A stretch of DNA of 64,000 nucleotides from Alphaproteobacteria bacterium (GTDB lineage: Bacteria; Pseudomonadota; Alphaproteobacteria; UBA7887). Shown piece after piece: positions 3,569-34,502 of the stretch (positions are counted from its first letter, which is position 1; the number at the start of each line of letters is the position of its first letter). The DNA lies in contig CBDCGL010000011.1 of the NCBI GenBank assembly GCA_965216755.1, positions 2,432,001-2,496,000 of the forward strand, given 5' to 3'. The translations under genes and the position numbers were made by a program. The notes beneath the pieces are model-generated. The model ran no database searches. It was not told the DNA's origin and saw only the letters and a program-made list of their open reading frames with translations.

Positions 3569-4564
3569 TTATGGTACCGTGACCTGTTTGCCCGTTTTCG
3601 CCGACTCGAACACCGCTTCCATGACGGCCGTATTGCGAACCATCTCATCGGGCCTGATCGGGTAGTCGGCGACACCCGCTACAGCATCCGCAAACGCCTC
3701 CAGATTGTCGCGGACCGGCTGCGCGGCGGGCACGTCCTGGACCACGATGGCGTCTTCTTCGTAGCATGTCTGCACGATCCAGCCGCGCGGGTTCTCGACA
3801 TGCGCTTTGTCGCGGATTTCGATCCAACCCTTGGCGCCATAGACCGCGAATCGCGAGATAAACGGCGTGGCCGAAAGCGCGGAAACGAATGCAATAGCGC
3901 CGGACTTGTACTTCACCATGGCGCACGCGGCATCGCCATTCGGCATGGTCGAGGCAAGCGTTTCGGCCGAGGCCAGCGCGGTGTCAGCTTCGCCGAGCAT
4001 GGCGGTTGCGAGGTCGAACATGTGAATACCGGTCGCGGTCATGCCACCCGCGGGCGCATCGGTGGGCGCGAGCCGCCAATTCTCGCTACCCAGTTTGCAA
4101 AAACGATCATGGCTAAAATTCGCCTCGACTTGGAGTATTGTGCCCAACGTGCCGGAACGGACCGTGTTGAGCGCATCCGCGACCGGCGGCTCCCAGCGGC
4201 GCTCATGGCCGATGCCAAGCACCAAGTTGCCCGCCCGGCACGCCGCGACACTGGCTTCGGCACCGGCCTTGGTGAGAGACAATGGCTTCTCGCAGAACAC
4301 GTGCTTGCCGGCAGCCGCAGCCGCGCGGACCTGCTTGTCGTGCAAATTGTGCGGTGTGGCGAGGATCACCGCGTCGACCTCTTCGTCGACCAACGCGGCG
4401 TCAGAGTTGTCGAGGATTGGGAAATTGACCGTTCTGGCGACAGCCGCCGCAGTATCCGCGTCCGGTTCAATACCCATGACGATGGTCATTTTATCGCTGC
4501 CGGCAATCGAGGCCGTCAGCTTTTTGCCCCACCAACCGAGCCCGACAATCGCCACGTTAATCAT
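3569..4564 (-). CDS. Gfo/Idh/MocA family NAD(P)-dependent oxidoreductase
   Basis: MINVAIVGLGWWG Rossmann start, GKHVFCEKP, GIHMFD. Confidence 0.93.
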   Translation of the reverse strand: MINVAIVGLGWWGKKLTASIAGSDKMTIVMGIEPDADTAAAVARTVNFPILDNSDAALVDEEVDAVILATPHNLHDKQVRAAAAAGKHVFCEKPLSLTKAGAEASVAACRAGNLVLGIGHERRWEPPVADALNTVRSGTLGTILQVEANFSHDRFCKLGSENWRLAPTDAPAGGMTATGIHMFDLATAMLGEADTALASAETLASTMPNGDAACAMVKYKSGAIAFVSALSATPFISRFAVYGAKGWIEIRDKAHVENPRGWIVQTCYEEDAIVVQDVPAAQPVRDNLEAFADAVAGVADYPIRPDEMVRNTAVMEAVFESAKTGKQVTVP

Positions 4565-9086: not shown

Positions 9087-10715
9087 TTAGGCATGCGACA
9101 GGATCAAGTCCGCGCATTTTTCGCCGACCATGATGCTGGGCGTATTGGTGTTGCCCGACGGCATGGTTGGAAAGATCGAGGCATCGGCGACGCGCAGGCC
9201 TTGCATGCCATGCACCCGCAATCGATCGTCGACCACCGCGTCCTTGCCCGGTCCCATGCGGCAAGTGCCGATCGGGTGGTAGGCGGTCTCGGCGTTCGCG
9301 CGAAGCCAACTCTCGATCTTGTCGTCGGTATCGATCGTGGGCCCGGGCGAAAATTCTTCTCCGCTGTAAGCCGCCATCGCGGGCGCGTCGACGATTTGGC
9401 GTAACATCTTAAAACCTGCGTTGGTTGTATCTCGGTCGATGGGGTCGCTCAGGAAATTGAAGTGGATCGCCGGCTGCTCGCGCGGATCCGCAGACTGGAT
9501 ATGGACAGTGCCCAAACTTTCGGGACGCAATTGATAGCAGGCGGCGGTCATCGCCGCGAAATCGTGCAGCTTACGGTGCTTGGGATCTTTCACCGCGTAG
9601 GGAACGAAAAACATCTGCACATCAGGCGTTTCGAGCCCCGTGCGGGTTTTCAGGAACGCGGTCAGCGGGGCTGACGGTAGGCTCAGAAAACCGGTCGATG
9701 CGGTGACGTATTTGAACAGCTCGACGGCGCCACGAACGCCACGCACCCGCCCGTTGTACGACGCGCTTTCAGCCTTCACGCGCAATTGTAGCCGCGCGAT
9801 GATGTGGTCGCGGAGGTTCTCGCCGATGCCGGAAAGCGCGTGGCGTACGTCGATGCCGCATGCCCGCAATATCTCCGGCCTGCCGATGCCGGAGAGCTCA
9901 AGCAGCTGTGGCGAGGCGATGGCACCGCCGCAAAGAATAACTTCGCGCTCGGCACGCACCTCTTCGCTTTGGCCGCGTCGTGCATAGACGACGCCATGGC
10001 ACCGCAGGCCGTCGAGTATGAGCCGCCGGGCCTCAGCCTCGGTGACCACGTGCAGGTTTGGGCGCTTCATCGCGGGACGCAGATAGCAGTGCGCGGTGCT
10101 CATCCGCCGGCCGCGCCAAATGGTCGCCTGGGTCTTGGCGATTCCTTCCTGGTCCGGCCCATTATAGTCCGGGTTGCGGCGATGGCCGACTTGTTCGGCT
10201 GCGTTGAACAGCGCATCGTAGAGCGGATTTTTGTCGCCCACCTCGGATACCCCGAGCGGCCCACCTTTGCCCCGCACGCCGTCCACGGCTTTGTCATGAT
10301 TTTCCATGCGCCGAAATAGAGGCTCGACGTCCTGCCAGCTCCAGCCGCGATTGCCACGCTGCGCCCAGGTATCGTAGTCGAGGCTCTGACCGCGTACGTA
10401 GACCAGGCCATTGATAGACGACGAACCGCCAAGAAGTTTTCCGCGCGGCACCGGAATGACCCGGGTGTGGGTCCCATCTTCGGGCTCAGAACGATAGCGC
10501 CAGTTGACACCGGGGTGATCGATGAACAGCCCAAAGCTCACCGGTAGCCGCGCTAGGGGGTGTCCCGCTTTGCCCGCCTCGATCAGCAGCACCCGGTTGC
10601 CCGGCTTGGCGGTCAATCGATAGGCCAGCGCAGAGCCCGCCGAACCTGCTCCAACGATGACATAGTCGTAACGTGCGTCCGCCAAATCTCTCACTCCCAC
10701 CACACGTTTGGTCAC
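9087..10715 (-). CDS. GMC family oxidoreductase (choline dehydrogenase-like)
   Basis: YDYVIVGAGSAG, PRGKLLGGSSSING, YHPIGTCRMG, GLRVADAS, SGNTN. Confidence 0.95.
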   Translation of the reverse strand: MTKRVVGVRDLADARYDYVIVGAGSAGSALAYRLTAKPGNRVLLIEAGKAGHPLARLPVSFGLFIDHPGVNWRYRSEPEDGTHTRVIPVPRGKLLGGSSSINGLVYVRGQSLDYDTWAQRGNRGWSWQDVEPLFRRMENHDKAVDGVRGKGGPLGVSEVGDKNPLYDALFNAAEQVGHRRNPDYNGPDQEGIAKTQATIWRGRRMSTAHCYLRPAMKRPNLHVVTEAEARRLILDGLRCHGVVYARRGQSEEVRAEREVILCGGAIASPQLLELSGIGRPEILRACGIDVRHALSGIGENLRDHIIARLQLRVKAESASYNGRVRGVRGAVELFKYVTASTGFLSLPSAPLTAFLKTRTGLETPDVQMFFVPYAVKDPKHRKLHDFAAMTAACYQLRPESLGTVHIQSADPREQPAIHFNFLSDPIDRDTTNAGFKMLRQIVDAPAMAAYSGEEFSPGPTIDTDDKIESWLRANAETAYHPIGTCRMGPGKDAVVDDRLRVHGMQGLRVADASIFPTMPSGNTNTPSIMVGEKCADLILSHA

Positions 10716-10878
10716 TCGACCATCGGATGCAACGAGCTTTTGCCAAGGTCAAGCGAAGCTCGCCAGTTTAGCAACTATGCTGCGGCCATGTGATAACCGA
10801 GGACCGAGCGCGGCCGGTACGTGCTTTGGCAGCGCAGCTGATCGTGCACCACCGAGCATTCACGAGAAGGGCCCGCAT

Positions 10879-11886
10879 ATGCAGATTGATGAAAACTGGC
10901 TCGCCCAACACACCGAGACAGCTCTTGAACCGGACCTGCCGATCATCGATCCGCACCATCACTTATGGGACCGACCGGGCGACCGGTACATGCTGCGTGA
11001 TCTGGTCGCCGACACCGGTTCCGGGCACAACATCACCGCCACCGTCTATGTCGAATGGAGCGCCATGTATTGCGCCGACGGTCCAGCCCACATGAAACCG
11101 ATCCGCGAAGTGGAATTCGCCAATGGGATCGCGGCCCAAAGCGCGCGTGGCGAGTTCGGACCAATCCGCGCTTGTCACGGCATTGTAGGCTATGCAGACA
11201 TGACCCGGGGCGCGGCGCTGGATGAGGTCTTGGCAGCGCAGATGGCCGCCGCGCCAACGCGCTTTCGTGGCATACGCCATTCAGTCTGCTGGGACCCGCA
11301 TGAGGATGTGCGGCCGGTCAAGGACCGGCCGCCGCACCTATACGCGGATCAAGCATTTCGCGCCGGTGTCGCGCGGCTCGGCGCCTTGGGGCTTAGCTTC
11401 GAGGCTTGGATGTATCATCACCAAATTGCCGAGCTCACCGAATTGGCACGCGCGATTCCCGACATCACAATCGTCTTGGACCATTTTGGCGGTCCGCTCG
11501 GGACCGGTCCCTATGCGGGCCAGCAAGAGTCGATCTTTCGCCAGTGGCAGGCAGATATTGCGGCCTTGGCCACATGTCCCAACGTGGTCGCGAAATTGGG
11601 TGGTATCAATATGGCGATCAACGGCTTCGGCTGGCACCTACGTGCGCACCCACCGAGCTCCGCGGAACTCGCCAGCGCAACCCGGCATTATTATTTGCAC
11701 AGCATCGATTGTTTCGGACCGGACCGATGCATGTTCGAAAGCAATTTCCCGGTCGATAAAATGTCCTGCAGCTATGCCGTTTTGTGGAACAGCTTCAAGT
11801 TGATGACCAAAGACTTCTCGGCAGCGGATCGGGCTGCCTTGTTTCACGATACGGCCGCGCGCGCCTACTGCCTAGATGGTGTATGA
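10879..11886 (+). CDS. Amidohydrolase family protein (Amidohydro_2, lactonase-like)
   Basis: IIDPHHHLW, RFRGIRH, LDHFGGP, CMFESNFPVD. Confidence 0.9.
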   Translation: MQIDENWLAQHTETALEPDLPIIDPHHHLWDRPGDRYMLRDLVADTGSGHNITATVYVEWSAMYCADGPAHMKPIREVEFANGIAAQSARGEFGPIRACHGIVGYADMTRGAALDEVLAAQMAAAPTRFRGIRHSVCWDPHEDVRPVKDRPPHLYADQAFRAGVARLGALGLSFEAWMYHHQIAELTELARAIPDITIVLDHFGGPLGTGPYAGQQESIFRQWQADIAALATCPNVVAKLGGINMAINGFGWHLRAHPPSSAELASATRHYYLHSIDCFGPDRCMFESNFPVDKMSCSYAVLWNSFKLMTKDFSAADRAALFHDTAARAYCLDGV

Positions 11887-21568: not shown

Positions 21569-23308
21569 TCAGGGCAGCGCGAACACCCAGAGTACGCCAC
21601 CGATCGGCGTCGGCCGCGTGTCGCCGTCCCAACCTCGCTCCGCGGCGAGCGAATTTTCCATGCGCACCGCGTCGACGCCCCAGCCGGCTTGCACGGCAAT
21701 ATACTGCTTGCCGTTGACCGAGTAGGACGAAGGAACCGCGGTAATTCCGGAGTTGGTCTTGAACTGCCAGAGGATCTCGCCGGTCTCGCCGTGGAAGGCC
21801 CGGAAAAGACGATCCCTGGTGCCGCCCGCGAAGACCAGGTTGCCACCGGTGGTGAGCAGTGGGCCCCAGTTGAAGGACTCGAAGTTCTGCGTCCACACCT
21901 CTTCGCCGGTGTTCAGATTCCAGGCCTGGACTTCGCCGATATGGTCCGAACCCTCGACGTAGTACATCTTGATGTCCGGGATCGGCACGCCGAGCCACAG
22001 CTCACCAGGCACCAAGGGCACGTCCTCGCCGATCAACGAACCGCACAGGTTGTCGTTGGCCGGAATATAGAACAGGCCGTTCTTCGGGTTGTACGCTTCC
22101 GGTGGCCAGTCCTTGCCACCCCACAACGATGGGCAGAACTTGATGAGTTCGCCGACCACAGGCTTCTTGGACTCGTCGTAACTCGGCCGCCCTGTTTCCG
22201 GGTCGATGCTTGTGAAGGCGTCTTGGCGCACATATTTATGCGCGTCGACAAAACCGATGTCCGCGCCCGTGCCGCGATCGAGCAGCCACAGATAGCCGTT
22301 GCGCCCCGCATGGGCGAGACCTTTGATCTGCTGGCCGTCGCGTTCAATCGGAACCAGCAACGGGGTGGAAACCTCGTCCCAATCCCACGAGTCGTTCCAG
22401 TGATACTGGTGGTGGCCGACAATCTCGCCGTCCGCAACCCGGATTGCGAGCGCCGAGGTGGTGTAGAGGTTGTCACCCGGGTGCAAGTCGCCGGTCCAGG
22501 GCGCGGCATTGCCGGTGCCCCAGTAGGAGACGCCGGTATCGGGGTCGTAGTTTCCGGTCAGCCAGACCGAGCCGCCGCCCGTCTTCCAAGCATCGTTTTC
22601 CCAAGTTTCATGGCCGGATTCACCCGGACCTGGGATCGTGTGGCGGACCCATTCTATCGCGCCAGTCTCGGCATTTATCGCCGTGATATGGCCGCGGATG
22701 CCGTATTCGCCACCCGACGTGCCGACCATGATTTTGCCTTCCGCAATCAGCGGCGCCATGGTCATGTAGTAGCCTGTCTCCCAATCGTCGGTGGCGGTCT
22801 TCCAGAGTTCCTCTCCGGTCTCCGCGTTGAGAGCGACCACCATGCAATCCGTGGTCGTGATGTAGACGTTGTTGCCGTAAAGCGCGACGCCACGATTGGT
22901 CGGATGGAGCTGGAACAGCTCTTCCGGGATCTCATGCTGGTAGCGCCACAGAAGCTCACCGTTCTCCGCGTCCAGCGCGATCACCTGGTTCTCCGGCGTG
23001 GTGATGAACATGACGCCGTCATTGACCACCGGCGGCGATTGGTGGCCTTCGTTGACATCGGTCGAGAATGCCCAAGCCGGCTTAAGATCTTTAACATTCT
23101 CGGTATTGATTTCTTCCAGAGGGCTGTAGCCCCAGCCGGCGTAATTACCGCGATACATGAGCCAATTCTCGGGCTCAGGGTTGACGAGCCTGTCGTCGGT
23201 AACGGCCGAGTAATCCGCAGCCGCGGCCGCGGCCGCGGCCGCGGGCAGCATCAAAACCCCTGCTACCAGCATGCGACCGATACGCCACACGTATTTTTTA
23301 GCATCCAT
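21569..23308 (-). CDS. Periplasmic PQQ-dependent dehydrogenase, methanol/ethanol family
   Basis: Signal peptide, WLMY.G..Y.SPL..IN..NV, Trp-docking propeller repeats, GGEYGIRG, WGTGN, WDWD, terminal LWVFALP. Confidence 0.93.
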   Translation of the reverse strand: MDAKKYVWRIGRMLVAGVLMLPAAAAAAAAADYSAVTDDRLVNPEPENWLMYRGNYAGWGYSPLEEINTENVKDLKPAWAFSTDVNEGHQSPPVVNDGVMFITTPENQVIALDAENGELLWRYQHEIPEELFQLHPTNRGVALYGNNVYITTTDCMVVALNAETGEELWKTATDDWETGYYMTMAPLIAEGKIMVGTSGGEYGIRGHITAINAETGAIEWVRHTIPGPGESGHETWENDAWKTGGGSVWLTGNYDPDTGVSYWGTGNAAPWTGDLHPGDNLYTTSALAIRVADGEIVGHHQYHWNDSWDWDEVSTPLLVPIERDGQQIKGLAHAGRNGYLWLLDRGTGADIGFVDAHKYVRQDAFTSIDPETGRPSYDESKKPVVGELIKFCPSLWGGKDWPPEAYNPKNGLFYIPANDNLCGSLIGEDVPLVPGELWLGVPIPDIKMYYVEGSDHIGEVQAWNLNTGEEVWTQNFESFNWGPLLTTGGNLVFAGGTRDRLFRAFHGETGEILWQFKTNSGITAVPSSYSVNGKQYIAVQAGWGVDAVRMENSLAAERGWDGDTRPTPIGGVLWVFALP

Positions 23309-23666
23309 ATCTTGCTCCCTCAGTGGGTATGTGTCGCGGACGCAGGCTCCTGGAGCTCGTCTCAATCCGCGACTGGACTTTTTTTCTGGTTCCGCCAAAC
23401 GACCGTCATGTTCACCGGCAACGATCAGAACGCCCTCGTCCACTGTCGACGGGGCTCAGGCACGGCCCGCTTGCTGGTGCGACCTCCCTTTCTCCCGCGA
23501 TCAATAAGTTTTCTCGTCTACATATTTCCTAGACAATTGTCTGCCGTCGGTTGCACACGCATTCATGATGCGATTTTCTTGACTATGCTTAAGTGTAGCC
23601 ACATCTGCCGGATCGTGGCAGATGTGGCTACGCCCTGGCGCCTGTCGGTCGCTAGGGAGGACTCGG

Positions 23667-24890
23667 TTATGTCAATTTCACGCTCTGATTGCTGTCGCGA
23701 ACAACGATTTCTTTGAAACGCGCCAGGCCGGTTCGGCGTTGGAAAACCGTGTTGGCGATGATCCAAACCCGAACAACGCGCGTCGCAGGGCCACCAATAT
23801 GTTGGGCATAGTCGTCGTAGACGTTGCGGCTCTCTGATATCCACTGACCCAGTGAGTCCCGCCCGTTTCGCACCACCATGTGTGTCTCTATTGGTGTCCA
23901 TCGCGGCAACGGGCAACGAAACACATACCCGACGGGCATGTCCACGCTCCACATGTACGTGATATCCTGGCCATCATCGAATTCGACGGCCATCGACAAA
24001 TAGTCGTGCGTGACGATTTTGTTCTCGGACAATGGCGACGGCAGTTCCTGCACATTCCAATGCCAGTCCAGCACGGTATCAGGGGCGAGCGGCATGGAAA
24101 CATCGCGTTCGAGGATACAAACGTTTTTATGAGTATGGCAGCAGATCTCACCGTCCGCGCACGACGAGAATATGCCGCCAGCGCCGAACATGAAGCCTGG
24201 TCGCCAGCCATCGGGCAGAGGTGGTTCAGTTTCTAGCCGCGTGACCTCTTCACGTATGGCGCCGGCAACATCGCCTTGATCCAGCAGACTACGCAACCCT
24301 GATAGAGGATCGCCGTTCCAGACCAACGCGACGGCCTCGATACGACCATCGCCTTGCTGATAGACGTCTTGTGGCATTGCCACGGCTTCCGCTTTCTCGT
24401 CCACCCAATCGGCGATTGCGCGCGCAACCGAAACCGGACCGGAACGGGCCGCAACCATCGTGCCCGTATTGTTCATTGGCGTGTAGATTGGGCTTTCGCC
24501 GCCGGCACGCGCGAACAGCGCAATGCCAGGTTCGACCCACACGTCGAGCTCTCTCGCAACCCACCAGCGCCCGCTGGCCAAAAAGGTCACGTGCTGACCT
24601 TCTTTAACGTCCAGGCCTATGTCTTTCCAGGGCAGGTCGGTTCCGACGATTTCAAAGCTTGCATAACTATGCAGCTCTGAACTGTCGGCGGCCTGGATGA
24701 TCCGCTCAATGCCTTGGGTAAACTCGTCGGGCGCCATCAAGGTGTGCATCTGGGTGGCCGCCGCGGTGCGAATATATGACATGACCGTCGGCCCAGAGAG
24801 GCCGAGGGCCGCGAGGCCTTTTAGTATTTTCCGCCGCGCGGCGGCGTCTTGAGGCAAATCGAAGTCTGGGTTCTTGATTTCTCTACACAT
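23667..24890 (-). CDS. Tat-exported DUF3047-domain protein
   Basis: RRKILKG Tat motif; C-terminal W.W.V.ELP, DITY.WS, RNV..DY, ANTVFQ. Confidence 0.7.
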   Translation of the reverse strand: MCREIKNPDFDLPQDAAARRKILKGLAALGLSGPTVMSYIRTAAATQMHTLMAPDEFTQGIERIIQAADSSELHSYASFEIVGTDLPWKDIGLDVKEGQHVTFLASGRWWVARELDVWVEPGIALFARAGGESPIYTPMNNTGTMVAARSGPVSVARAIADWVDEKAEAVAMPQDVYQQGDGRIEAVALVWNGDPLSGLRSLLDQGDVAGAIREEVTRLETEPPLPDGWRPGFMFGAGGIFSSCADGEICCHTHKNVCILERDVSMPLAPDTVLDWHWNVQELPSPLSENKIVTHDYLSMAVEFDDGQDITYMWSVDMPVGYVFRCPLPRWTPIETHMVVRNGRDSLGQWISESRNVYDDYAQHIGGPATRVVRVWIIANTVFQRRTGLARFKEIVVRDSNQSVKLT

Positions 24891-25080
24891 GCTTCCTCCC
24901 CAACGGCAATCAATACGCCTTGTACCCTTGCTTGTGTCGCATATGGGGGGCGTCGGTTGGTGATCTTCGCGAAAGTATTTTGTAATTTGATTGTGAGGAT
25001 TCATCGTGGGTTGGCGCGCGAGGCGCCCCGTGCCATGCCGCGTGAATCAGTTTGCCGACCTGCCGAAGGAGATCAAGACG

Positions 25081-25785
25081 ATGAATGTTGCAGACAAAAA
25101 GGCGATTGTGTTCGGCGGAACATCTGGCATTGGCTTGGCCGCCGCAAAGCAACTCGCCGCGCTCGGGGCGTCTGTTATCGCGGTCAGCCGGGACCCGGAC
25201 AAAGCCGGCGACGTCCCGGCCGGCATCAGCCTTCGAAAATGTGATGTGCGCGATCGCACCGCCGTCTCGGAGCTGTTTCAGACGTGCGCACCATTTGACA
25301 TATTGGTGAATGCCGCCACGGGTGGTCGGCGCGCCTTGGGGCCGTTTCTGGAAATGGATATGGACGGTTTTCAGAACTCCTTCGACAAGCTGTGGGGCTA
25401 TGCGAACGTGATTCGCTATGGCACCACACACATGAGCCCGGACGGCACGATTGTGCTGGTCAGCGGGGCGCCGGCGCGCAAGGCGAAACCGGGGCAGGTG
25501 TCGTTGTCCTCGGTTGGTGGCGCGGTTGAAGCTTTTGCGCGCGCCGTGGCGCCGGAAATTGCGCCGCGCCGCTTGAATGTTGTATCGCCCGGCTCGATCG
25601 ACACACCGATGATTTCATTGCAAGGCGACGAACGTCGTGCCTTCTATGAAAAAGCGACCGCCAAGCATCTCATCCCGCGACCGGGCACCGCCGAGGAGGT
25701 TGCACAGGGCATCATTTTCGCGATCCAGAACGACTTCATTACGGGTACGACAATCGATGTTGATGGCGGCGCGCTGCTTTCGTGA
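25081..25785 (+). CDS. Short-chain dehydrogenase/reductase (atypical)
   Basis: VFGGTSGIG, NVVSPG.IDTP, VDGG; the catalytic YxxxK is not evident. Confidence 0.9.
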   Translation: MNVADKKAIVFGGTSGIGLAAAKQLAALGASVIAVSRDPDKAGDVPAGISLRKCDVRDRTAVSELFQTCAPFDILVNAATGGRRALGPFLEMDMDGFQNSFDKLWGYANVIRYGTTHMSPDGTIVLVSGAPARKAKPGQVSLSSVGGAVEAFARAVAPEIAPRRLNVVSPGSIDTPMISLQGDERRAFYEKATAKHLIPRPGTAEEVAQGIIFAIQNDFITGTTIDVDGGALLS

Positions 25786-25924
25786 ACGCGCTGACCACCC
25801 GACACGCCGTGATCGTTATTGCGGGGCGCGCATCCGCATTTGACGATGGCCGCCGCGGCAAGTGCCATCTTGTGTACCAAATTCGTGGATATCTGGGCGT
25901 ATCGCGCCGGGTCAGCGCTGTCGC

Positions 25925-27430
25925 CTAGTCGGCGACGCGGATGGTGACTCGCGCGCGCGCCAGATGGGTCGGATCGATGCGTGAAAAGGACGAAACCAAC
26001 TGGGACATCGAGTCGACCGGAAGCGGCGTCAGATCGGCGACCTTGTAGGCTTCGGGCAGCTTTGTTCCGACCTCCTTATAGGAAGCAAGGCAGACAACCT
26101 CTTCCTGCACGCCAGGTCGTTCGAAAACGATATCGAACAGCGCGTCTTGGGACGGAATCTGCAGGGTCTTGCCACCGATGGCGTAAGGGTCGGGCTGGAA
26201 GCTGTTCGGGAAAATGCGCGCAATCTGGCCCCGGTCGTCTCGGTAATAGCAGTAGACGTAGGAATCCTGCGAGGTCGTCACCGCCAAGCGCAAAACCTCT
26301 TCCACTCTGTATTCGGGGGCGGCGCCTTTCTCGGTCACAAGTTCCAATCCAAGCGGCGGCGGCGCGGTCACGTCGACGGTCGCCGGCTCGGCCAGCTTCG
26401 GTCTGTATCCCAGCGCAAGATCTTGGGCGATCAGCGACCGATAGAGCTGAAGATCGATGTCGCCGTTCGCCAGCAAACCGTTTTCCGCCTGATAGCGGGA
26501 CACCGCTCCTTTTGTACTTGTGTCGAGCGTGCCGCTGATCGGACCGTAATAATAGCCTTCGCTTGCCAGCGCGCGCTGCACAAAAACGATGCGGTCTTGC
26601 GAAGACATGGACTCAAACCACGATCTTGCCACCGCAATCATTTCAGGATTGGTCTGTTCGATTTGCAGGCATCGCCAATACGGCACTTCGGTGAGTTTCC
26701 CCATGATCTCGATAGCGCTGAGTTCAATGAGCGTTCGAGTGGCCGCGTGAACACCTTCGCTGTTGTTCATCGAGACATTGAAAAACAGACCGGCCTTGCC
26801 GATCGTCGCGTTGGCATCACCGCCAACGCCGGTGCGGCTCACCGCAATCGAGTTGTTCGCCGCGATACCTGGCAAAATTTGGCGGGTCGCAAGATGCGCC
26901 ATGTTCATGTCGACTGACACAACCGACACGACCAAGTCTTTGGAAACACCCAAGCTGAAGTCGGGGACCGCGACGCCGCCGCCGACTTGTTCGGCAATCA
27001 CACCCGAATCGAGCTGCGTGATAGCGCCGCGGATATAGTAACTCGGCACGCGGAACTCGTCGGTGTAGCCAATCAGAGCCTGTAACTCTGCAACGTCGTC
27101 TTGGGACTGGTCAAAATCGACGAATGTAAACGCCTTGCTCTTCACGGACATGCGCGAAATCGCCGAAATCAGCATGTCCTTGGTGCCGGCGCCCACCTCG
27201 CCGGTCTCGTCCGGAATGCCATCACTGGTCACCACCACGTCGCGCACGCCAAAAGAATGGAACATATCGTCCATACACTGCAGCGCCGGCGTGAAACTGG
27301 TGATATTGCGCATCGGCGTCGTCTTCGGCTGGGCCACGGTATGGGCGGTTTGCGGATTTGACGTCACGCAGGCCGAGAGCGAGAAGACTAGGCTTAAGGC
27401 TGCCAGGTACTGAACGGTGTTTCGTTTCAT
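25925..27430 (-). CDS. Lipoprotein with CsgG/HfaB-like N-terminal domain, peptidoglycan-binding domain and DUF4384-like C-terminal domain
   Basis: Lipobox LSAC; CsgG-like segment (DETG, YYIRGAITQLD, G.G.., VVSVDMN); PG_binding_1-like VQRAL...GYY.GPISG.L...TK.AV..YQ..NGL...G; DUF4384-like YVYCYY.D..G.I.RIFPN. Confidence 0.75.
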   Translation of the reverse strand: MKRNTVQYLAALSLVFSLSACVTSNPQTAHTVAQPKTTPMRNITSFTPALQCMDDMFHSFGVRDVVVTSDGIPDETGEVGAGTKDMLISAISRMSVKSKAFTFVDFDQSQDDVAELQALIGYTDEFRVPSYYIRGAITQLDSGVIAEQVGGGVAVPDFSLGVSKDLVVSVVSVDMNMAHLATRQILPGIAANNSIAVSRTGVGGDANATIGKAGLFFNVSMNNSEGVHAATRTLIELSAIEIMGKLTEVPYWRCLQIEQTNPEMIAVARSWFESMSSQDRIVFVQRALASEGYYYGPISGTLDTSTKGAVSRYQAENGLLANGDIDLQLYRSLIAQDLALGYRPKLAEPATVDVTAPPPLGLELVTEKGAAPEYRVEEVLRLAVTTSQDSYVYCYYRDDRGQIARIFPNSFQPDPYAIGGKTLQIPSQDALFDIVFERPGVQEEVVCLASYKEVGTKLPEAYKVADLTPLPVDSMSQLVSSFSRIDPTHLARARVTIRVAD

Positions 27431-27484
27431 TTCGGCCTCCGTGCGGTCGCGCAGTGCGCTGTCGCTCGCTCGCGTCGTAGCTAG

Positions 27485-27784
27485 CTAGCAGTTCCGATTG
27501 ACGTTGATGATGTCCCTGGCGACGATGATGACCTCTCGTGGTGGCCGCGCGTTGCCACGTAAGTCGCCGACGATCAGGTCACTACACCCGTCATTCGTGA
27601 TACGGCCGAATTTCTTGGGGTCGGCCTTGCGTCGACTCAGGCCTTCCGCGACCACGGAGTTCACCTTGGCTTGCGAGCCGGGGTCAAGATGCGGCCGATG
27701 ATTGATCTCTTTGGCCGACGCGCTGGTGAGCAAACCGATCACCAGGCCGACGCCGGCAAATATCGCGTATGTTCGGGTTTTCAT
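27485..27784 (-). CDS. Small secreted protein with two Cys
   Basis: Signal peptide ending SASA; GCSDLIVG...PREVIIVARDIINVNRNC; GGAG RBS. Confidence 0.75.
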   Translation of the reverse strand: MKTRTYAIFAGVGLVIGLLTSASAKEINHRPHLDPGSQAKVNSVVAEGLSRRKADPKKFGRITNDGCSDLIVGDLRGNARPPREVIIVARDIINVNRNC

Positions 27785-27818
27785 CGCTCTCTCCCTGCGC
27801 TCTGCCATCGCGCGACGG

Positions 27819-28235
27819 TCAGCAGCTATCGCCAAACGCGCCGACAGCGACACAAGACCGAGTGCCGGCGCCGCCGGCCACGTTCAAGACGCTTTCGACG
27901 ATAACCGTTTGCTTGAAGCTCCCGGGGATGGTCACGTCGCCTTGGACAGTGCCGACGTACATTTCGGCCTCGCTGCCAACGCCGTTGGCCAGATTGACGG
28001 CGCGATCGACCGCCGTCGCATTCGTCAGGTTGCCGCCGACACGAATATCCCCGGCAATCGCGCCAATCGACTGAATGGCCGTACTACCGGCGCCGCGCGC
28101 CTGATTGGCGGCCTCGTTGACAATAGCGACATTGACGAGACGCCCGCCGACTTCAATTTCACCCGCCGAAACCGCGCCTGCCGACACTTGGGCCATAACC
28201 GCGGCAACGACTAGGAGCATTATCCTTCGGTTCAT
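27819..28235 (-). CDS. Secreted protein of three imperfect 37-aa Asn/Gly/Val-rich repeats (amyloid-subunit-like)
   Basis: Signal peptide, then EIEVGGRLVN...N.A.G.GS.A..SIG / DIRVGGNLTN...NLANGVGSEA...VG / DVTIPG...NVAGGAGTRS...VG; C-terminal Cys pair. Confidence 0.8.
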   Translation of the reverse strand: MNRRIMLLVVAAVMAQVSAGAVSAGEIEVGGRLVNVAIVNEAANQARGAGSTAIQSIGAIAGDIRVGGNLTNATAVDRAVNLANGVGSEAEMYVGTVQGDVTIPGSFKQTVIVESVLNVAGGAGTRSCVAVGAFGDSC

Positions 28236-28409
28236 CTATTTGGTCCCATTACACAATTTCGCATCGGCTTGGTTGCCTAAGACCCAACCGCGGGCGGCCA
28301 GCATTCAGCCAAATATACAGCAAAATCTCCCACCGTGGCGTTCGGGCAAACAGCCCATGTCCCGTTCGACGCGGGCGCGCCCGAACCACGGACCGCCGCG
28401 GCGATTTGT

Positions 28410-28736
28410 CTATTCGCCAGCAACGCTGATCGTGCCGATATTCTGCGTGGCGGTGCTTTCGAAGCCATGTGCCAAGTTGACGGCATTCTGGCCCACAACG
28501 CCGACATTGACGAGGTCGCCGCCGACGAAAAGGCCGGCGTCGTCGCTGATGCTGATGGTGCCAATGTTTTGTTCGGCGCTGCTGCCGGCACCAAACGCCA
28601 GATTGACCGCATTTTGGCCGACGATACTCAGGTTCACGGCGTTGCCGCCAACCTCGAGGTCCGCGCCGAAGGCAGTGCCCGCGCTGATCAGACCGATGGC
28701 GGCGGCCACCGGCAGACTTACAAATTTGGCAAACAC
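28410..28736 (-). CDS. Secreted protein of two near-identical repeats at 42-aa spacing (amyloid-subunit-like)
   Basis: AAGGAG RBS, GTG start, signal peptide, then LEVGGNAVNLSIVGQNAVNLAFGAGSSAEQNIGTIS / LFVGGDLVNVGVVGQNAVNLAHGFESTATQNIGTIS. Confidence 0.8.
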   Translation of the reverse strand: MFAKFVSLPVAAAIGLISAGTAFGADLEVGGNAVNLSIVGQNAVNLAFGAGSSAEQNIGTISISDDAGLFVGGDLVNVGVVGQNAVNLAHGFESTATQNIGTISVAGE

Positions 28737-28848
28737 GGCTATGTACTCCTTTGAAGTTCTGAGATGTAGCGTTTTTCTCTACACACGAAGGTCGGTCCCA
28801 ATAGGGGTTAAAGTTGCCCAACAAATCAGCGTGAGGGCCCGCTCGCTA

Positions 28849-30294
28849 TCATCTTCCCTCGCCTTTCAGGATGGCGATCGCCGCGTCGATGCCTCCGTCA
28901 ACGCCGTTTTGAAGATCATCCACTGACAGAAATGGCGTCACGACGTCGGGCGGAATGCCGACCGCTTCGAACACTTCGCCGTCTGGCCCGGCATAGATTT
29001 CGTTGGACAGGCTGACCAGCCAACCGTTTGGCAATGACCGATACAGCTCGTCCGAAAAAATGCCATTGGTCGGCTCTCCGACCAAAGTGACCTGCGGCAA
29101 AGACCGCATGGCAAGCGCGAATATCTCCGCGGCGCTTGCCGTTTCCGCGCTGACCAAGACAACAACGGGGCCCTGATAGCGTGGTCCGCGTGCGGGGCTA
29201 AGAACAAGATCGTGCCGTGTGGTCTCGCCTCCCTTGTCGTGCGGACGCTTCGACCCAAAGACGCGTGTCCGGTCGGCAAACCGACTGGCAATGGCAAGCG
29301 CCACGGCATCGTGGCCGCCGCCGTTGAGGCGCACGTCGACAATCATGCCTGGCAAGTGTCCAACATCGGCCAACATTTCGTTCAGCACGGGTTCAAGAGC
29401 CGCCAGGTCATCGGCTGAAGTGTGTGCCCAATAGTCGAGGTCAGACATGCTGTCGACACGGAAATAGGCCGTCGATCCTTCGATCGCGCCCCACATAACT
29501 TGCGCGTCGAGCGCATGTTCGAGCCGACCGTTCAGATAGTCGTTTTTCAGCACTTTCTGATACAGCGCATATTGTTTTTTGAGATACGCGTCCGGGTTAC
29601 AGTCTCCTTCCAAGCGGTCGCGACAAGCTGCGACAAGCCTGCTGGAAAGCGGCGATGCAACCGACACAACATCCTGGTCATCGATGTACAAAGCCACGTG
29701 CGCGTCGCCGAGCCGTTCCAACATTTCGTCAAGCACATGGCCAAGTTCTCGTCTTGTCGAGCCTTCGCCGACGCGAGGGCGGAACTCGGCGTAGATCGCC
29801 TGCCAATCAACATTACGTTCGGGAAAAAACGCGTAGTGTTGATCGAACGTCTGCCACAGAACCTCAAAATTCAGTACCGGATCGTCTGTAGGCCGCGTCA
29901 AGCCTGTCGGGCACACGCGGTCGAAACCGCCATCGTCCGCCGACACAAATGTAATCGGCGCCAAAGTGCCATCGTTGCGAACTTCGAATATTCGCGTTTC
30001 CCCATTCTGGCGTAACGCAAGGTCAGCAGGAAGTCCGTCAGAGTCGTATTCGCCACTCAGCAGACAACTCACCGGTGTCCGTTCTATCAATCTGGCTTTA
30101 TCCGGCGTAATTTCCGCAACCAAGCCGTAGCCTTGGGATTGCCACAGGCCGATCAGTTCGTCCGCTATCGGTTCGCTTGCGTCGCAACCACTTGCGATGG
30201 CCGATGAGGACATCACGAACCATATCGCTTTGAGACCATGCAACCGGCATGCTCGCCGTGTGGATTGACCGCCTTGTTCGCCCCGTATGGTCAT
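28849..30294 (-). CDS. S41 family peptidase (probable lipoprotein)
   Basis: IASGC lipobox-like; NF..LW..F..HY, LGDAHV, IVDVRLNGGG, TASAAEIF, GEPTNG, G.PPD. Confidence 0.9.
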   Translation of the reverse strand: MTIRGEQGGQSTRRACRLHGLKAIWFVMSSSAIASGCDASEPIADELIGLWQSQGYGLVAEITPDKARLIERTPVSCLLSGEYDSDGLPADLALRQNGETRIFEVRNDGTLAPITFVSADDGGFDRVCPTGLTRPTDDPVLNFEVLWQTFDQHYAFFPERNVDWQAIYAEFRPRVGEGSTRRELGHVLDEMLERLGDAHVALYIDDQDVVSVASPLSSRLVAACRDRLEGDCNPDAYLKKQYALYQKVLKNDYLNGRLEHALDAQVMWGAIEGSTAYFRVDSMSDLDYWAHTSADDLAALEPVLNEMLADVGHLPGMIVDVRLNGGGHDAVALAIASRFADRTRVFGSKRPHDKGGETTRHDLVLSPARGPRYQGPVVVLVSAETASAAEIFALAMRSLPQVTLVGEPTNGIFSDELYRSLPNGWLVSLSNEIYAGPDGEVFEAVGIPPDVVTPFLSVDDLQNGVDGGIDAAIAILKGEGR

Positions 30295-30389
30295 GGATAC
30301 TCCCACGAATTTGCTGAACCTCATCTGGTGGGCTACACGCACCCCAGCGACGCCCATGGCGCCGCAAAGGATACGCAAGGAACGGATTG

Positions 30390-33300
30390 TCAGATCGCTT
30401 TGGCCGGGTTGCCGAGCCAGTGCGCGTTCGAATCGACTGTCTCGCCCTTCATCAAAAACGAATCCGCGGCCAATATGGCGTTGTCACCCATGGTGACCCC
30501 ATAATGCGCGAACGCGTTGATACCCAGCGTACAGCCTTTGCCAATCTTGATATGATCGGACTTGAACACGCCTTCTTCAAGGGAATGCGACTGCAACGTG
30601 CTTTCCTCATTCAGCGTGCAATAGTCGCCAATCACGGCCAGTGTTTTCTCGGTCGGCATGCAGCCGTCGTCGAAGACCATCTTTCCGACCCGGACACCCA
30701 ACAGCCGCGAAATCACACTTTTGAACGGTGTCCCAGTAAACAAAGATTGCAAGGGCGTGTCGGCGACTTTCCAGTGACGTTCGACCAGCCAGTAGCGGTC
30801 ATCATAAATGGTACATGTCAAGGGACGCAGTCTCCTAAATCCGAGACTGCACCATTCGAGTCCGACAAAATAGCCAATGGTCAAGGCGAACCCGGCGATA
30901 AAACCGACGACCAGCGACGCGAGTCCGAAGTCGTTGTAGAGCATCAGCGCGGTGAGGCCAAGATACATAGTAAGGTAGGAAAACAGCCATTTGCCGAGCA
31001 ACCAAAGCCCCATGGTTCGAATGTTATGGCTGTTCTTCTTGCGCAACTGGCTGTCACGCTCGCCGTCATCGACATTTGACATCTGTTGGTCACGCAGCGT
31101 CGCCCGCGGGATTTCAAAGCTCGGTGACCCGAGCAGGCCGACACCTTCACGCACCGGACCGTCGATCGGGATCATGACCTTGGTCGCCAACAAACAGTTG
31201 TTGCCGGTTTTGCTTTCCGATGGATAAAAGATTGCATTGCCCAAGTAATTATGATCACCGATAACGGTCTTCGAGACTTTGAAAGACGACGTCGAGAGTT
31301 GCGCATTCATCATCGTCAGCCCGTCGGAGACCATCGTGCCGGTCCCGATGTGGCACAGCAGCGGATTGTCGTGTTGCTGCATGGTGCCGAAATTGGAACC
31401 GGTTTGGATGACTTTCGCCAAGTCGTAGCCGATGAACCGCAAGTAACGCGTGATATACGAGCTGTCGCCAAACAGGTCATTGTAGAACTTCACGTTACTG
31501 ACCGCGTGGATGTATTGGAAGATAAGGTAACGGATCCCGTAGATCACGTAGGTCCTGCCCTCCTTCATGAACAAGTTGGCGAGTCGAGGCAACACGCCCG
31601 CAAATATCAGGCCAAGAGGAATGCTGAGCGCGAACACCCCGAAATGCACGGCCGGCAAGTATTGCGTGATGGGGCGCCAGTATGTGGCCAGAAGCGTGGA
31701 GAACCGCGCTAAGGCGTCGCCCTCGCCGAACAAGAACGGCAGAAAGTGAACCATGGCGAGCAACGGCAGCGGCAACACGATGAAATAACCGCTGATGATC
31801 AGGTATGCCGAATAGATGACACGCCGCAAAGTGCCGCAGTTTTTGGTTTCCATTTGGCAGAAATCGGTGTCCGTCTCTTCCGCCGGGGAGCCGTGATAGC
31901 GTTTCCCGGCCGGGACAACTTGACCCGGCTGCAATGAAGACACATGAGCCAGCTGGGTGTTGTCCTCCATAGCGGAATTGATGTCGATGATCGAGGCTTC
32001 GCCGACAAAGGCGTTGCTGCCAATCGATACCGAGCCGATCTGGATGTAGCCACCTTCGGCCCGATAGCCCTTGAGGATCGTCTCGCGGCTCAAAATCGTG
32101 TTGTCGCCAATTGAGATCAGATCGGTGCAAACCGGCCCCGACTTGGAAAGAATGACCACATTCTTGCCGATTTTGGCGCCGAGCAAACGCAGGTAAATGT
32201 TGTAGACTGGCGTCCCAACGAACATCGCCATCGGATTGATCTTGGTATACTGCCGGACTACCCAGAAGCGGAAATAGGATAGGCTCCAAATGGGTATGCG
32301 CTCTTCTTTCCAGCGGCCGATCAGCAGCCATTTCACGGCGAAGGGCAGGGCCAGCGAGAACGCCAGCGATGCCATGGCAAAGATAAAGACGCGGGTGTAG
32401 GCGTCCACCATGCCCGTGGCCGAGAACACCCAATTCACACTGAAGATCATGAGCCACAAACCGGCGGCAATGTTGGCGCCGTAAAACAGCAGCTGCAGCG
32501 CGCCGCAGGTAAAATATTCGCGTTTACTTGGAATGCGGTAGGTATCCGGGTTGCCGACCACCGCAGCCGTTGCGTCCTTGGCAGCCAACAAGCCGGCCAA
32601 ACCACGAACGGTCGGGTTGCGGTAGATGTCGCGCATCGACACATCGGTGATATCGAGTTTTTTGCGGATCTTGGCCGTGAAATTGGCCATCATGAGTGAG
32701 TTGGCGCCAAGGTCCTCGAACAGATCGTCTTCAACGGAAACGCGTTCGACATTCAGCAAGCCGGCGAGAATATCGGCGAGTGCGGTTTCAAGTTGCGTGT
32801 CGGGCGCCACATAATCGCGGTCGGTGCGGTTAATCCGCTGCCGCGATGGGGCGGGCAGAGCCTTTCGGTCCGCCTTGTCATTCGACGTCATGGGAATGAT
32901 GTCGAGCGGCTCGTAGTAGGTCGGCACCATGTAGCTTGGCATTAACTCGCGCAGGGCGTCAGCCACACAGGCGGGTTCCAGGTGCGGCCGGCCTTCGACC
33001 GCGGTGTAGTACGCCACCAGCTCCTTGACGCCCGGCTCCGCCTCATACGTGTCAACCACCGCCTGGGCGACACCGGGAATCTGCATGATCACCGACTCGA
33101 TCTCAGTCAGTTCGATCCGATAGCCCCGAATCTTGACCTGCGTGTCAATGCGACCGAGATACTCAATCTGTCCTTCCGCGTTGACGCGACCGAGATCGCC
33201 GGTCCGGTAAATACGCTCGGACGGGTTGTTCGGGATGTTGAGAAAATCGTCGATAAACGCTTTCTCCGTCAGATCCTCTCGGCCAAGATAGCCGGGGGCC

Positions 33301-34502
33301 AAACAGATCCCGGCGATACCGATTTCGCCGGTGTCGCCGCGCGGCAAGGCGCGATTTTCATCCGCCGACAGGATCACGATCGAATAGGTCGGCAGCGGCA
33401 CGCCGATGGTGACGGGCGTGCCGGGGCGCAACGCGGTGACCGTTGCGGTCACGGTCGCCTCGGTCGGACCATAGGCGTTCAGGATGGTGCGGTCATCGCG
33501 GTACCAGCGTTCGACCAAGTCATAAGGGCACGCTTCGCCCGATGTGATCAAAAGGCGCAGGTCCGGCAGATCTTCCTCGATCGTGGCCAACAGGGTCGGC
33601 ACGCAACACAGGGCGGTAACCCGGCGCTCGGCCAAGAATTCGTGCAAGTCCGAACCCAATAGGCTGCCGCCGGTCTGATTGGGCACCAAAGTGGCACCGG
33701 CGATCAACGGCACCCAAATCTCCTCGACAGAGAAGTCGAATGCGATCGTCAAGCCCTGATAGACCCGGTCCTGCCACCGATAGCCGTAGACTTCGGCCGC
33801 CACGCGAACAAAGTTGCAGATGCTACCGTGTTTGATCGGCACGCCTTTCGGTCGCCCGGTGGTGCCTGACGTATAGATGATGTAGGAGAGCTCGCTTAAC
33901 GGGTGCCCCGTCTCGTCGAGGGTCAAGCGCGCCGCATCCTCGGCTTGGATATCTTCTTCGCTTTGGTCGATACAGAGTAGAGGCGTCGTCAGGGCCTTAA
34001 GATTTTCGGTATGTCGCGACAAGGTCACGATCATACTGACGGCGGCATCCTCTGCGATGTAACGGATTCGATCTTCCGGAAAGCAAACATCAAGCGGAAC
34101 ATAGGCGGCATTGATCTTCTGCACCGCAAGAAGCGACACATAGCTGTCGACGGAGCGATCAAAAAGAAGACCGATGATGTCGCCGGTACCGAGCCCCTGC
34201 CGAATCATATACCGCGCTAATTGATTGGCACGCCGATCGAGTTCGCTATAGCTCAAGGCCCCTTCTTGGCTATCGATTGCAAGATGCTCCGCCCTGCCGT
34301 CGCGCGCCAACGCGTCGCAGCGTGCCTCAAACAAGTGATGAAGCCGCTCGCCGCTTGTCCAACGTGGGTTATTGTCCCCCTCAGGCACCAGAATCAGGGC
34401 GCGCCGCGCGTCGTCGACGGTCATTGTCGAGTGAGAGGCTTGGGAGACCGGCACCTGCCGCGCATGCGCGGTCTTTGGTTCTAGGTCCAACGAGAAGTCC
34501 AT
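30390..34502 (-). CDS. Pls/PosA-family single-module membrane NRPS (A-T-transmembrane with C-terminal hexapeptide-like domains)
   Basis: A-domain motifs YIIYTSGTTGRPKG, AFDFSVEE, NAYGPTE, YRTGDL, QVKIRGYRIEL; carrier motif DLGANSL; then TM segments alternating with LLGAKIG/LLGVRVG and IG-repeat domains; ends WLGNPA. Confidence 0.9.
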   Translation of the reverse strand: MDFSLDLEPKTAHARQVPVSQASHSTMTVDDARRALILVPEGDNNPRWTSGERLHHLFEARCDALARDGRAEHLAIDSQEGALSYSELDRRANQLARYMIRQGLGTGDIIGLLFDRSVDSYVSLLAVQKINAAYVPLDVCFPEDRIRYIAEDAAVSMIVTLSRHTENLKALTTPLLCIDQSEEDIQAEDAARLTLDETGHPLSELSYIIYTSGTTGRPKGVPIKHGSICNFVRVAAEVYGYRWQDRVYQGLTIAFDFSVEEIWVPLIAGATLVPNQTGGSLLGSDLHEFLAERRVTALCCVPTLLATIEEDLPDLRLLITSGEACPYDLVERWYRDDRTILNAYGPTEATVTATVTALRPGTPVTIGVPLPTYSIVILSADENRALPRGDTGEIGIAGICLAPGYLGREDLTEKAFIDDFLNIPNNPSERIYRTGDLGRVNAEGQIEYLGRIDTQVKIRGYRIELTEIESVIMQIPGVAQAVVDTYEAEPGVKELVAYYTAVEGRPHLEPACVADALRELMPSYMVPTYYEPLDIIPMTSNDKADRKALPAPSRQRINRTDRDYVAPDTQLETALADILAGLLNVERVSVEDDLFEDLGANSLMMANFTAKIRKKLDITDVSMRDIYRNPTVRGLAGLLAAKDATAAVVGNPDTYRIPSKREYFTCGALQLLFYGANIAAGLWLMIFSVNWVFSATGMVDAYTRVFIFAMASLAFSLALPFAVKWLLIGRWKEERIPIWSLSYFRFWVVRQYTKINPMAMFVGTPVYNIYLRLLGAKIGKNVVILSKSGPVCTDLISIGDNTILSRETILKGYRAEGGYIQIGSVSIGSNAFVGEASIIDINSAMEDNTQLAHVSSLQPGQVVPAGKRYHGSPAEETDTDFCQMETKNCGTLRRVIYSAYLIISGYFIVLPLPLLAMVHFLPFLFGEGDALARFSTLLATYWRPITQYLPAVHFGVFALSIPLGLIFAGVLPRLANLFMKEGRTYVIYGIRYLIFQYIHAVSNVKFYNDLFGDSSYITRYLRFIGYDLAKVIQTGSNFGTMQQHDNPLLCHIGTGTMVSDGLTMMNAQLSTSSFKVSKTVIGDHNYLGNAIFYPSESKTGNNCLLATKVMIPIDGPVREGVGLLGSPSFEIPRATLRDQQMSNVDDGERDSQLRKKNSHNIRTMGLWLLGKWLFSYLTMYLGLTALMLYNDFGLASLVVGFIAGFALTIGYFVGLEWCSLGFRRLRPLTCTIYDDRYWLVERHWKVADTPLQSLFTGTPFKSVISRLLGVRVGKMVFDDGCMPTEKTLAVIGDYCTLNEESTLQSHSLEEGVFKSDHIKIGKGCTLGINAFAHYGVTMGDNAILAADSFLMKGETVDSNAHWLGNPAKAI

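Follow-up and report, generated by a model that had tools for sequence, protein, structure and literature searches.

Four adjacent genes, hereafter g1 to g4, occupy positions 25925-28736 on the minus strand of the alphaproteobacterial DNA studied here (the window, a stretch of 64,000 nucleotides, G000:C11:2432001-2496000), which belongs to a genome of 5.0 Mb with a completeness of 99.8%. The chances appear about even that these genes form a CsgG/HfaB-type (type-VIII-like) module that exports and assembles subunits of the beta-solenoid kind, in which the product of g3 would act as a one-rung nucleator or anchor. This reading draws on the fold and domains of g4, the repeat architecture of g1 and g2, a homology between g3 and the repeat proteins, and the linkage of the genes in other proteobacterial genomes.

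The first gene, g1 (28410-28736), encodes 108 amino acids (aa) from a GTG start with AAGGAG 9 nt 5' of it, followed by g2 (27819-28235), which encodes a secreted protein of 138 aa. For g3 (27485-27781, 98 aa) an ATG start with GGGAGAGAG in front was chosen, the alternative being a longer open reading frame (ORF) with a GTG start from 27853, and g4 (25925-27430) encodes a 501-aa lipoprotein with GGAGG 5' of its start. All four N-termini are signal-peptide-like, the signal peptides and the lipobox of g4 having been assigned by eye, without a predictor. The sequence-only reading of this DNA had described four co-oriented genes with the repeats and cysteines detailed below, and its coordinates, co-orientation and repeats were all confirmed. 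The GC content of the cluster equals that of its surroundings, terminator-like sites at the locus show no excess (4 against 4.2 expected), and an Rfam scan of the window gave no matches. The g1-g2 spacer was considered as an attenuator or terminator and rejected, its fold stability being within that of shuffled sequences (z -1.46).

The structure of g4 was predicted from an alignment of 93 homologues (mean predicted local distance difference test score, pLDDT, 77.2). The model consists of an alpha/beta N-terminal domain (residues ~40-258, 26657-27313), a helical peptidoglycan (PG)-binding module (PG_binding_1, PF01471, residues 278-332, 26435-26599; Pfam 1e-9, 38.8 bits against a cut-off of 23) and an Ig-like beta-sandwich with pLDDT > 90 in the DUF4384 region (residues 356-501, 25928-26365, from Pfam and the model), all encoded on the minus strand. 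The Pfam match to DUF4384 (PF14326) itself covers residues 373-452 (8.5e-19, 67.9 bits against a cut-off of 27), and VIA relates the sandwich to GbpA, CARDB and PKD domains at Z ~8. The lipobox reads L-S-A-C21, with C21 kept in at least 90% of the 93 homologues, and two Cys pairs are invariant among them, namely C52/C254 in the N-terminal domain and C394/C447 in DUF4384.

When the g4 model was compared with the PDB by Foldseek, CsgG chains ranked at the top (E 2.6e-6), and VIA matched the N-terminal domain to pre-pore CsgG (4uv2_M, Z 13.5, root-mean-square deviation 4.6, 172/217 aligned) and to membrane-bound CsgG (4uv3_A, Z 12.8). Other members of the fold class ranked lower, with Z of 9.2 for PelC, 9.0 for FlgT, 8.7 for DUF330 and 7.8 for HpaA. 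Over a fold domain of ~215 residues, 172-187 residues were aligned with CsgG and 119-142 with PelC and FlgT, PelC alone giving 119-124 at Z 9.0-9.2. In addition, the 93-sequence profile of g4 aligned by hhalign with HfaB over 228 columns (E 3.8e-6, probability 87%) and with E. coli CsgG, as given in an annotated K-12 record, over 160 columns (E 0.0019), a D-x-T-G motif region being common to g4 and CsgG. The HfaB used as comparator was a 335-aa protein from another alphaproteobacterial genome (L100) that scores 405 bits on the NCBIfam HfaB model (NF037935). On these two E values, g4 is closer in profile to HfaB than to CsgG, and inspection shows a Cys in the first helix and a Cys just past the last domain helix to be common to g4 and the L100 HfaB. 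The earlier proposals that the N-terminal half of g4 resembles CsgG/HfaB and that PG-binding and DUF4384 domains follow it were borne out, the first by fold comparison and profile alignment and the second by Pfam. By fold and profile g4 is a member of the CsgG/HfaB superfamily, yet it falls in neither curated family. Pfam CsgG (PF03783) appears in the precomputed annotation of 2 of the 120 g4 homologues listed; a scan of the own genome found no Pfam CsgG match above the cut-off, g4 being the sole candidate at 19 bits, and no match to the HfaB model at E <= 1e-20.

Two regions of g4 bear on whether it could form a channel. Its segments 142-166 and 185-221 align by hhalign to the two membrane-hairpin regions of CsgG, and ~60 extra residues are kept by g4 exactly at these two positions, residues 213-221 showing an alternation of hydrophobic and polar columns across the 93 sequences. 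Moreover, the hhalign gap makes g4 12 residues shorter than E. coli CsgG between the D-x-T-G motif and the next helix, and this gap region (residues 77-83 of g4) varies in length in just one of the 22 aligned sequences shown. The stretch of CsgG opposite the gap is the constriction loop with its Tyr/Asn/Phe eyelet.

The products of g1 and g2 are 46% identical to each other and have no Pfam or NCBIfam match. There are two repeats spaced 42 aa and no Cys in g1, while in g2 a 37-aa unit occurs three times and a Cys pair (C126, C138) lies at the C-terminus. Compared with itself at an offset of 42 aa, g1 scored 125 against 27.5 +/- 5.5 (maximum 47) in 200 shuffles; g2 scored 139 at 37 aa and 55 at 74 aa against 29.3 +/- 4.7 (maximum 48), the best repeat scores of the two proteins being ~18-23 standard deviations over the shuffles. 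A word search of 5.8 billion proteins recovered three close relatives of g1 besides itself, to which those of the four nearest loci are added. A phmmer search with g2 among 1.84 billion cluster representatives gave 48 matches with E <= 0.001, three of them with E <= 1e-10, and one of the 48, the apparently spurious P0149 (791 aa), was excluded from the alignment of the repeat family.

Members of the repeat family are secreted proteins of ~100-180 aa with 2-4 repeats, and in most of them two Cys separated by 8-12 residues close the chain. When the 281 repeats of 101 members (search matches and locus-derived proteins) were pooled, the repeat motif x-[VI]-G-G-x-[LV]-x-[NQ]-[TV]-[TV]-x-[VA]-x4-N-x-A-x-G-x-G-x2-A-x3-[IV]-G-[ST]-[IV] was obtained, with fixed positions conserved at 91% (G), 68% (N), 81% (A), 96% (G), 80% (A) and 85% (G). 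Two repeats were counted in 51 of the 101 proteins, three in 35, four in 8, one in 5 and six in 2. Judged by sequence, g1 is a clade-restricted paralogue, and the g2 type, with about three repeats and a terminal Cys pair, is the form typical of the family. Because the g2 type is family-typical and close relatives of g1 are rare, the sequence-only reading, which made g1 the major subunit and gave g2 the part of a nucleator or cap, is left without a basis on this point.

A model of g2, built from a 50-sequence alignment, is all-beta (pLDDT 84.8). A wide VIA comparison with this model found weak matches, to beta-helix proteins only, the best being two-partner secretion (TPS)/EtpA at Z 3.4, with bactofilin at Z 2.5; the neighbours of the g2 homologue P0126 in the ESM Atlas were unnamed clusters and generic beta-solenoids. 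That the repeats are not of the curlin kind, as had been proposed, was upheld, since none of 50 family members matches Curlin_rpt and the hhalign alignment with CsgA (E 0.085) is restricted to the signal-peptide region, as are those with HfaA (E 0.041) and HfaD (E 0.085). The repeat-family profile found nothing at E <= 10 among PDB sequences, FapC included. We conclude that g1 and g2 are probably short beta-solenoid-type proteins of an undescribed family.

The third protein, g3, is secreted and has two Cys residues (C66, C98). In its family (37 sequences), a strongly conserved N-terminal peptide, K-E-[YI]-N-x-R-P-H-L-x-P-G-x-Q-x-K-V-N, stands right behind the signal peptide and is followed by a variable linker and a Cys-bounded C-terminal segment. 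With hhalign, the C-terminal 31 residues match the final repeat of the repeat family and the tail behind it (E 3e-6, probability 88%, 38 columns), against E of 0.027-0.031 for unrelated profile pairs used as controls and 0.027-0.5 for seven unrelated comparisons overall. This protein may be read as a single repeat-like rung preceded by an N-terminal peptide of its own, and because its C-terminal segment is common to g3 and the repeat proteins, it seems less like an adaptor than like a nucleator or anchor homologous to its subunits, in the manner of CsgB. The sequence-only reading had taken g3 for a CsgE/F-like adaptor, an assignment that did not survive, as the g3 family showed no similarity by hhalign to CsgE (E 0.1) or CsgF (E 0.5). 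A complex prediction for mature g2 with mature g3 scored 0.29 against a mark of 0.32, which is evidence neither way. At five other loci of one clade (L021, L024, L025, L029 and L031), a g3-like gene carries an extra C-terminal tail like the start of a further repeat (G-G-N-V-E-I-G-R-D-C); these loci have no separate repeat gene within 8 kb, and an OmpA-family gene lies divergently upstream.

Homologues of g4 are common, with at least 658 proteins at E <= 0.001 among 8000 scored candidates. In a scan of one genome per species, 153 g4 relatives were found and 80 loci kept, the hosts being Geminicoccaceae and other alphaproteobacterial metagenome-assembled genomes (MAGs), Azospirillum, Rhodocyclaceae/Propionivibrio, Terasakiella and some gammaproteobacterial MAGs. 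Synteny was counted with iterated hidden Markov models (HMMs) on six-frame ORFs of both strands, over 81 loci (these 80 and the paralogous locus described below), and g3 was found at 44, a repeat gene at 36, both at 34 and either at 46. An earlier count, limited to same-strand upstream genes of 76 g4 ORFs with at least 1.5 kb upstream (repeat gene 31, g3 29, both 22), was replaced by this one because it undercounted divergent arrangements; an all-versus-all clustering of ORFs, blurred by antisense and low-complexity ORFs, served only as a lead for the neighbour-family searches. The four nearest loci preserve the arrangement exactly, with repeat genes of 103-116 aa and 136-150 aa followed by g3 and g4, and the same gene order is seen across alpha-, beta- and gammaproteobacterial records. 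Linkage of the genes was upheld in many other genomes. Outside an Azospirillum-centred clade, g3 is present in 45 of 51 g4 loci and a repeat gene in 35 of 51, several of the loci that are without them having < 600 bp of upstream sequence; within that clade of 31 loci the linkage failed, as set out below. On the midpoint-rooted tree of g4 proteins, this clade was recognised by the very feature in question, so that its separation describes the data and does not test the linkage. Of 301 evenly sampled genomes of the class, 5 have g4-type genes; repeat genes are present in 3, all within the 5, a co-occurrence in which kin are not independent. Repeat-family matches are also present in Propionivibrio and 'Bacterium HR40' genomes. 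In Rhodocyclaceae and Propionivibrio (L043, L045, L048 and L083), the repeat and g3 genes are divergent, on the opposite strand upstream of g4, and more small secreted proteins are encoded after g4.

Further copies exist in the same genome. A paralogous cluster that is larger than the one in the window and lies ~1.4 Mb away (L014, G000:C11:3866000-3880000) runs on one strand in the order extracytoplasmic function (ECF) sigma factor (10828-11481 of that locus), 518-aa protein (9265-10821; coiled-coil, with a DUF4384 match that is weak and below the cut-off, 8.6e-5), repeat, g3, repeat, g3, repeat, g4 paralogue and 'CWQ' protein, a small two-Cys protein (3808-4173). Its three repeat genes encode 170-173 aa, and its g4 paralogue is 59% identical to g4. 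It is flanked by an autotransporter gene downstream and an OmpA-family gene divergently upstream. In addition, a repeat-g3 pair stands alone downstream of ATP synthase genes (L015, 4586-5540), and a solitary repeat gene of 170 aa (L105, 4085-4597) has a translation identical to that of an L014 copy. This brings the total for the genome to seven repeat genes and four of the g3 type, and because repeat and g3 genes alternate, the arrangement suggests that the repeat-g3 pair duplicates as a unit.

If the four genes work together as an export and assembly module, their products would first cross the inner membrane via Sec, as the signal peptides imply. The g4 product would then receive its lipid and be delivered to the outer membrane, in which its N-terminal domain may oligomerise to a CsgG/HfaB-like channel, while PG_binding_1 and the Ig-like DUF4384 domain might tie the ring to the cell wall from the periplasm. 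Protein g2 and its paralogue g1 would be exported via g4 as beta-solenoid subunits of 2-3 rungs and might stack end to end on the cell surface to give fibres or short oligomers, possibly with amyloid behaviour. The g3 protein, its rung closed by the Cys pair, could serve, at the end nearest the cell, as the nucleator or anchor by which the subunits are joined to the pore or to the outer membrane. More speculatively, a g4 channel without ~12 constriction-loop residues might be wider and tolerate the disulfide-stapled ends of its clients.

A stronger version of this proposal, which we put forward tentatively and consider rather doubtful, is that the repeat proteins make up a third class of beta-solenoid fibre, sequence-unrelated to curlin and Fap, that is secreted by an eyelet-less, wall-tethered channel and grows on a g3 template. 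Such a channel could pass partly folded, disulfide-stapled clients, the conserved N-terminal peptide of g3 might plug into the pore so that fibre growth is templated by g3, and the seven subunit paralogues at four loci would diversify the fibre.

Several observations weigh against the export and assembly module. With respect to the pore, g4 scores 18.0 bits on Pfam CsgG, under the cut-off of 20.8, and 24.4 bits (E 1.4e-5, residues 130-248 only) on NCBIfam HfaB, where the cut-off is 300; the 93-homologue profile finds no CsgG at E <= 1 among PDB sequences, and the hairpin-equivalent segments are modelled poorly, with pLDDT < 50 at 142-166 and 201-205 and of 52-75 given for 190-230. As to the subunits, Foldseek with the g2 model gave nothing at E <= 0.001, the FapC fibril 9u4u_A heading the list at E 0.32, and neither Foldseek nor the wide VIA comparison gave a significant match to a CsgA fibril or to FapC, the latter being absent from the VIA list; with 2-4 rungs and a stapled end, g1 and g2 could be capped monomers that do not polymerise. 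The plain repeat HMM matches the g3 family weakly (best full-sequence E 0.014, while the top-scoring one among 185 shuffles reached 0.17), consistently on the segment E-V-I-I-V-A-R-D-I-I-N-V. The repeat genes at L015 and L105 lie far from any g4, and two common companions of g4, an OmpA-family protein, which is its top neighbour (65 of 82 loci), and the 'CWQ' protein of ~120 aa with two Cys (48 of 82), are absent at the window locus.

The distribution of g4 points the same way. In the 31-locus clade of Azospirillum, Aliidongia and relatives, g4 occurs without g3 or convincing repeat genes, and a genome-wide search of three Azospirillum genomes found no repeat-family match. Because the g4 family exists there without these genes, its core function is argued to be broader than the export of repeat proteins, and the pore family not to be dedicated to these clients. 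In this clade, an OmpA-family gene comes after the g4 homologue, together with genes for the 'CWQ' protein and for a DUF4384 protein of 385 aa, the last being near g4 in 25 of the 31 loci and absent at the window locus. At L071, two paralogous small secreted proteins with the motif G-H-H-H-L-L-I-D-T precede the g4 homologue, and these are candidate g4 clients in Azospirillum.

A different assembly on a similar pore deserves consideration, namely one like the Caulobacter holdfast anchor, in which g4 would export or stabilise g1 to g3 as a short, detergent-resistant hetero-oligomer of the outer membrane that tethers exopolysaccharide or matrix, as HfaA/D/E with HfaB, and does not form free fibres. 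We regard this as unlikely, for all that speaks in its favour. Like the holdfast anchor HfaA-HfaB-HfaD(-HfaE), the present locus is alphaproteobacterial and combines a gene for an outer-membrane lipoprotein of the CsgG/HfaB superfamily with adjoining genes for small secreted proteins; the g4 profile is nearer HfaB than CsgG, two Cys positions are common to g4 and the L100 HfaB, and the subunits are very short. The small secreted proteins beside g4 differ by clade, as in the multi-protein Hfa anchor according to the available parts of two sources (PMC6707917; bioRxiv 10.1101/2022.07.20.500906), and the available part of a third reports that an Acinetobacter cluster of the CsgG/HfaB family affects poly-N-acetylglucosamine (PNAG) and not curli (bioRxiv 10.1101/2021.05.19.444899). 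However, no polysaccharide synthesis or export genes adjoin the locus (window 22000-33000) or occur in L014, and no holdfast genes were seen near g4. Moreover, the repeat proteins and g3 are unlike HfaA and HfaD, g4 reaches 24 bits on the HfaB model, and the L100 HfaB has neither of the PG_binding_1 and DUF4384 domains of g4.

Improbable in our view, too, is an envelope scaffold without export, in which g4 would be a wall-tethered, non-pore ring of the CsgG/PelC/FlgT class and g1 to g3 its periplasmic beta-solenoid binders, attached for example via DUF4384, with a structural or stress-sensing role. Non-pore rings do occur in the fold class (PelC and FlgT, at the Z scores given above), half of g4 consists of the periplasmic PG-binding and Ig-like domains, and its commonest neighbour is an OmpA-like wall-binding protein; the ECF sigma factor and the 518-aa protein with its weak DUF4384 match upstream in L014, Cys pairs that suit periplasmic folding, the low confidence of the hairpin segments and the missing constriction loop would all agree with such a role. 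Against this, CsgG stands ~4 Z units over PelC and FlgT with more residues aligned, g4 has ~60 extra residues where CsgG has its membrane hairpins, and HfaB, the closest sequence relative, is reported, in the available part of the source, to be necessary for client translocation (bioRxiv 10.1101/2022.07.20.500906).

Finally, it is very improbable, and largely ruled out already by the synteny counts, that the four genes adjoin one another without any functional relation and that the repeats are noise produced by the composition of a GC-rich genome: a promoter scan of the locus gave no sigma-70-like site (1.2 expected), the spacer fold is no different from shuffles and the S41 peptidase gene upstream (described below) is not conserved with the cluster, but the repeat scores far exceed those of shuffled sequences, the repeat-repeat-g3-g4 order recurs in the four nearest loci and across three proteobacterial classes, and the co-occurrence holds at the level of genomes.

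Directly upstream of g1 and co-oriented with it (28849-30378, minus strand) is a gene for an S41/tricorn-type peptidase with a lipoprotein-like N-terminus. It was considered as a FapD-like processing protease and rejected, since just two of the fetched loci, L040 and L042, have homologues of it, and not on the strand of the cluster. Further upstream (30390-34502, minus strand) lies a gene for a 1370-aa protein with AMP-binding, PP-binding and C-terminal hexapeptide-repeat domains and long hydrophobic stretches, which looks like a membrane-bound, single-module enzyme of the non-ribosomal peptide synthetase (NRPS) kind. The downstream flank of the cluster holds genes for a short-chain dehydrogenase (25006-25785, plus strand), a 445-aa DUF3047 protein (23667-25004, minus strand) and a pyrroloquinoline quinone (PQQ)-dependent alcohol or glucose dehydrogenase (21569-23443, minus strand); no link of these genes (21569-25785) to the cluster was seen.

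Among known systems, curli (CsgA/CsgB, CsgE/F and CsgG) is similar in the CsgG fold, lipoprotein anchor and D-x-T-G region of g4, and in that a shorter homologous partner accompanies the repeat subunits, g3 here and CsgB for CsgA. It differs in that g4 falls under the Pfam CsgG cut-off and has ~12 constriction-loop residues absent, that the repeat is 37-42 aa long in contrast to ~22 aa in curlin, and that hhalign with g3 revealed no CsgE or CsgF relatives. Pseudomonas Fap subunits (FapB/FapC) likewise carry three imperfect repeats, about as long as those found here, and Cys near the C-terminus, whereas the exporter is a FapF-type barrel there and CsgG/HfaB-like here, and no equivalents of FapA, FapD or FapE were recognised at this locus. 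Another non-curli lipoprotein of the CsgG/HfaB family is encoded by a widely distributed three-gene lipoprotein cluster of Acinetobacter and Neisseria that has no assigned function (bioRxiv 10.1101/2021.05.19.444899), whose partners are two lipoproteins, unlike the secreted repeat proteins found here; the available part of that source describes no PG-binding/DUF4384 fusion. In A. baldaniorum, BLAST-type screening is reported to have found no csgA or csgG, and the matrix contains formic-acid-resistant proteins, according to the available part of the report (PMC13723633, 2026). Homologues of g4 occur in Azospirillum, the genus of this reported absence, and the repeat proteins were not found there.

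No description of the present pore-plus-repeat architecture was found in a literature search that excluded subscription-only literature. Taken together, the four genes represent a genuine and conserved variation on CsgG/HfaB secretion and assembly that is apparently unpublished; it looks related to curli yet distinct from it, and its function, by analogy, would be the export and assembly proposed above. Type VIII (CsgG/HfaB-type) export is known almost wholly from curli and, less so, from the Caulobacter holdfast anchor. The module described here would add a divergent pore, with a fusion to wall-binding and Ig-like domains and no constriction loop, together with unnamed, short, Cys-stapled clients built of 37-aa repeats and a partner that has a single repeat. 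If this holds true, the module would offer a compact system for studying how a pore selects and releases its clients, a new amyloid-like or solenoid scaffold, and a candidate for a wide-bore nanopore of the CsgG type.

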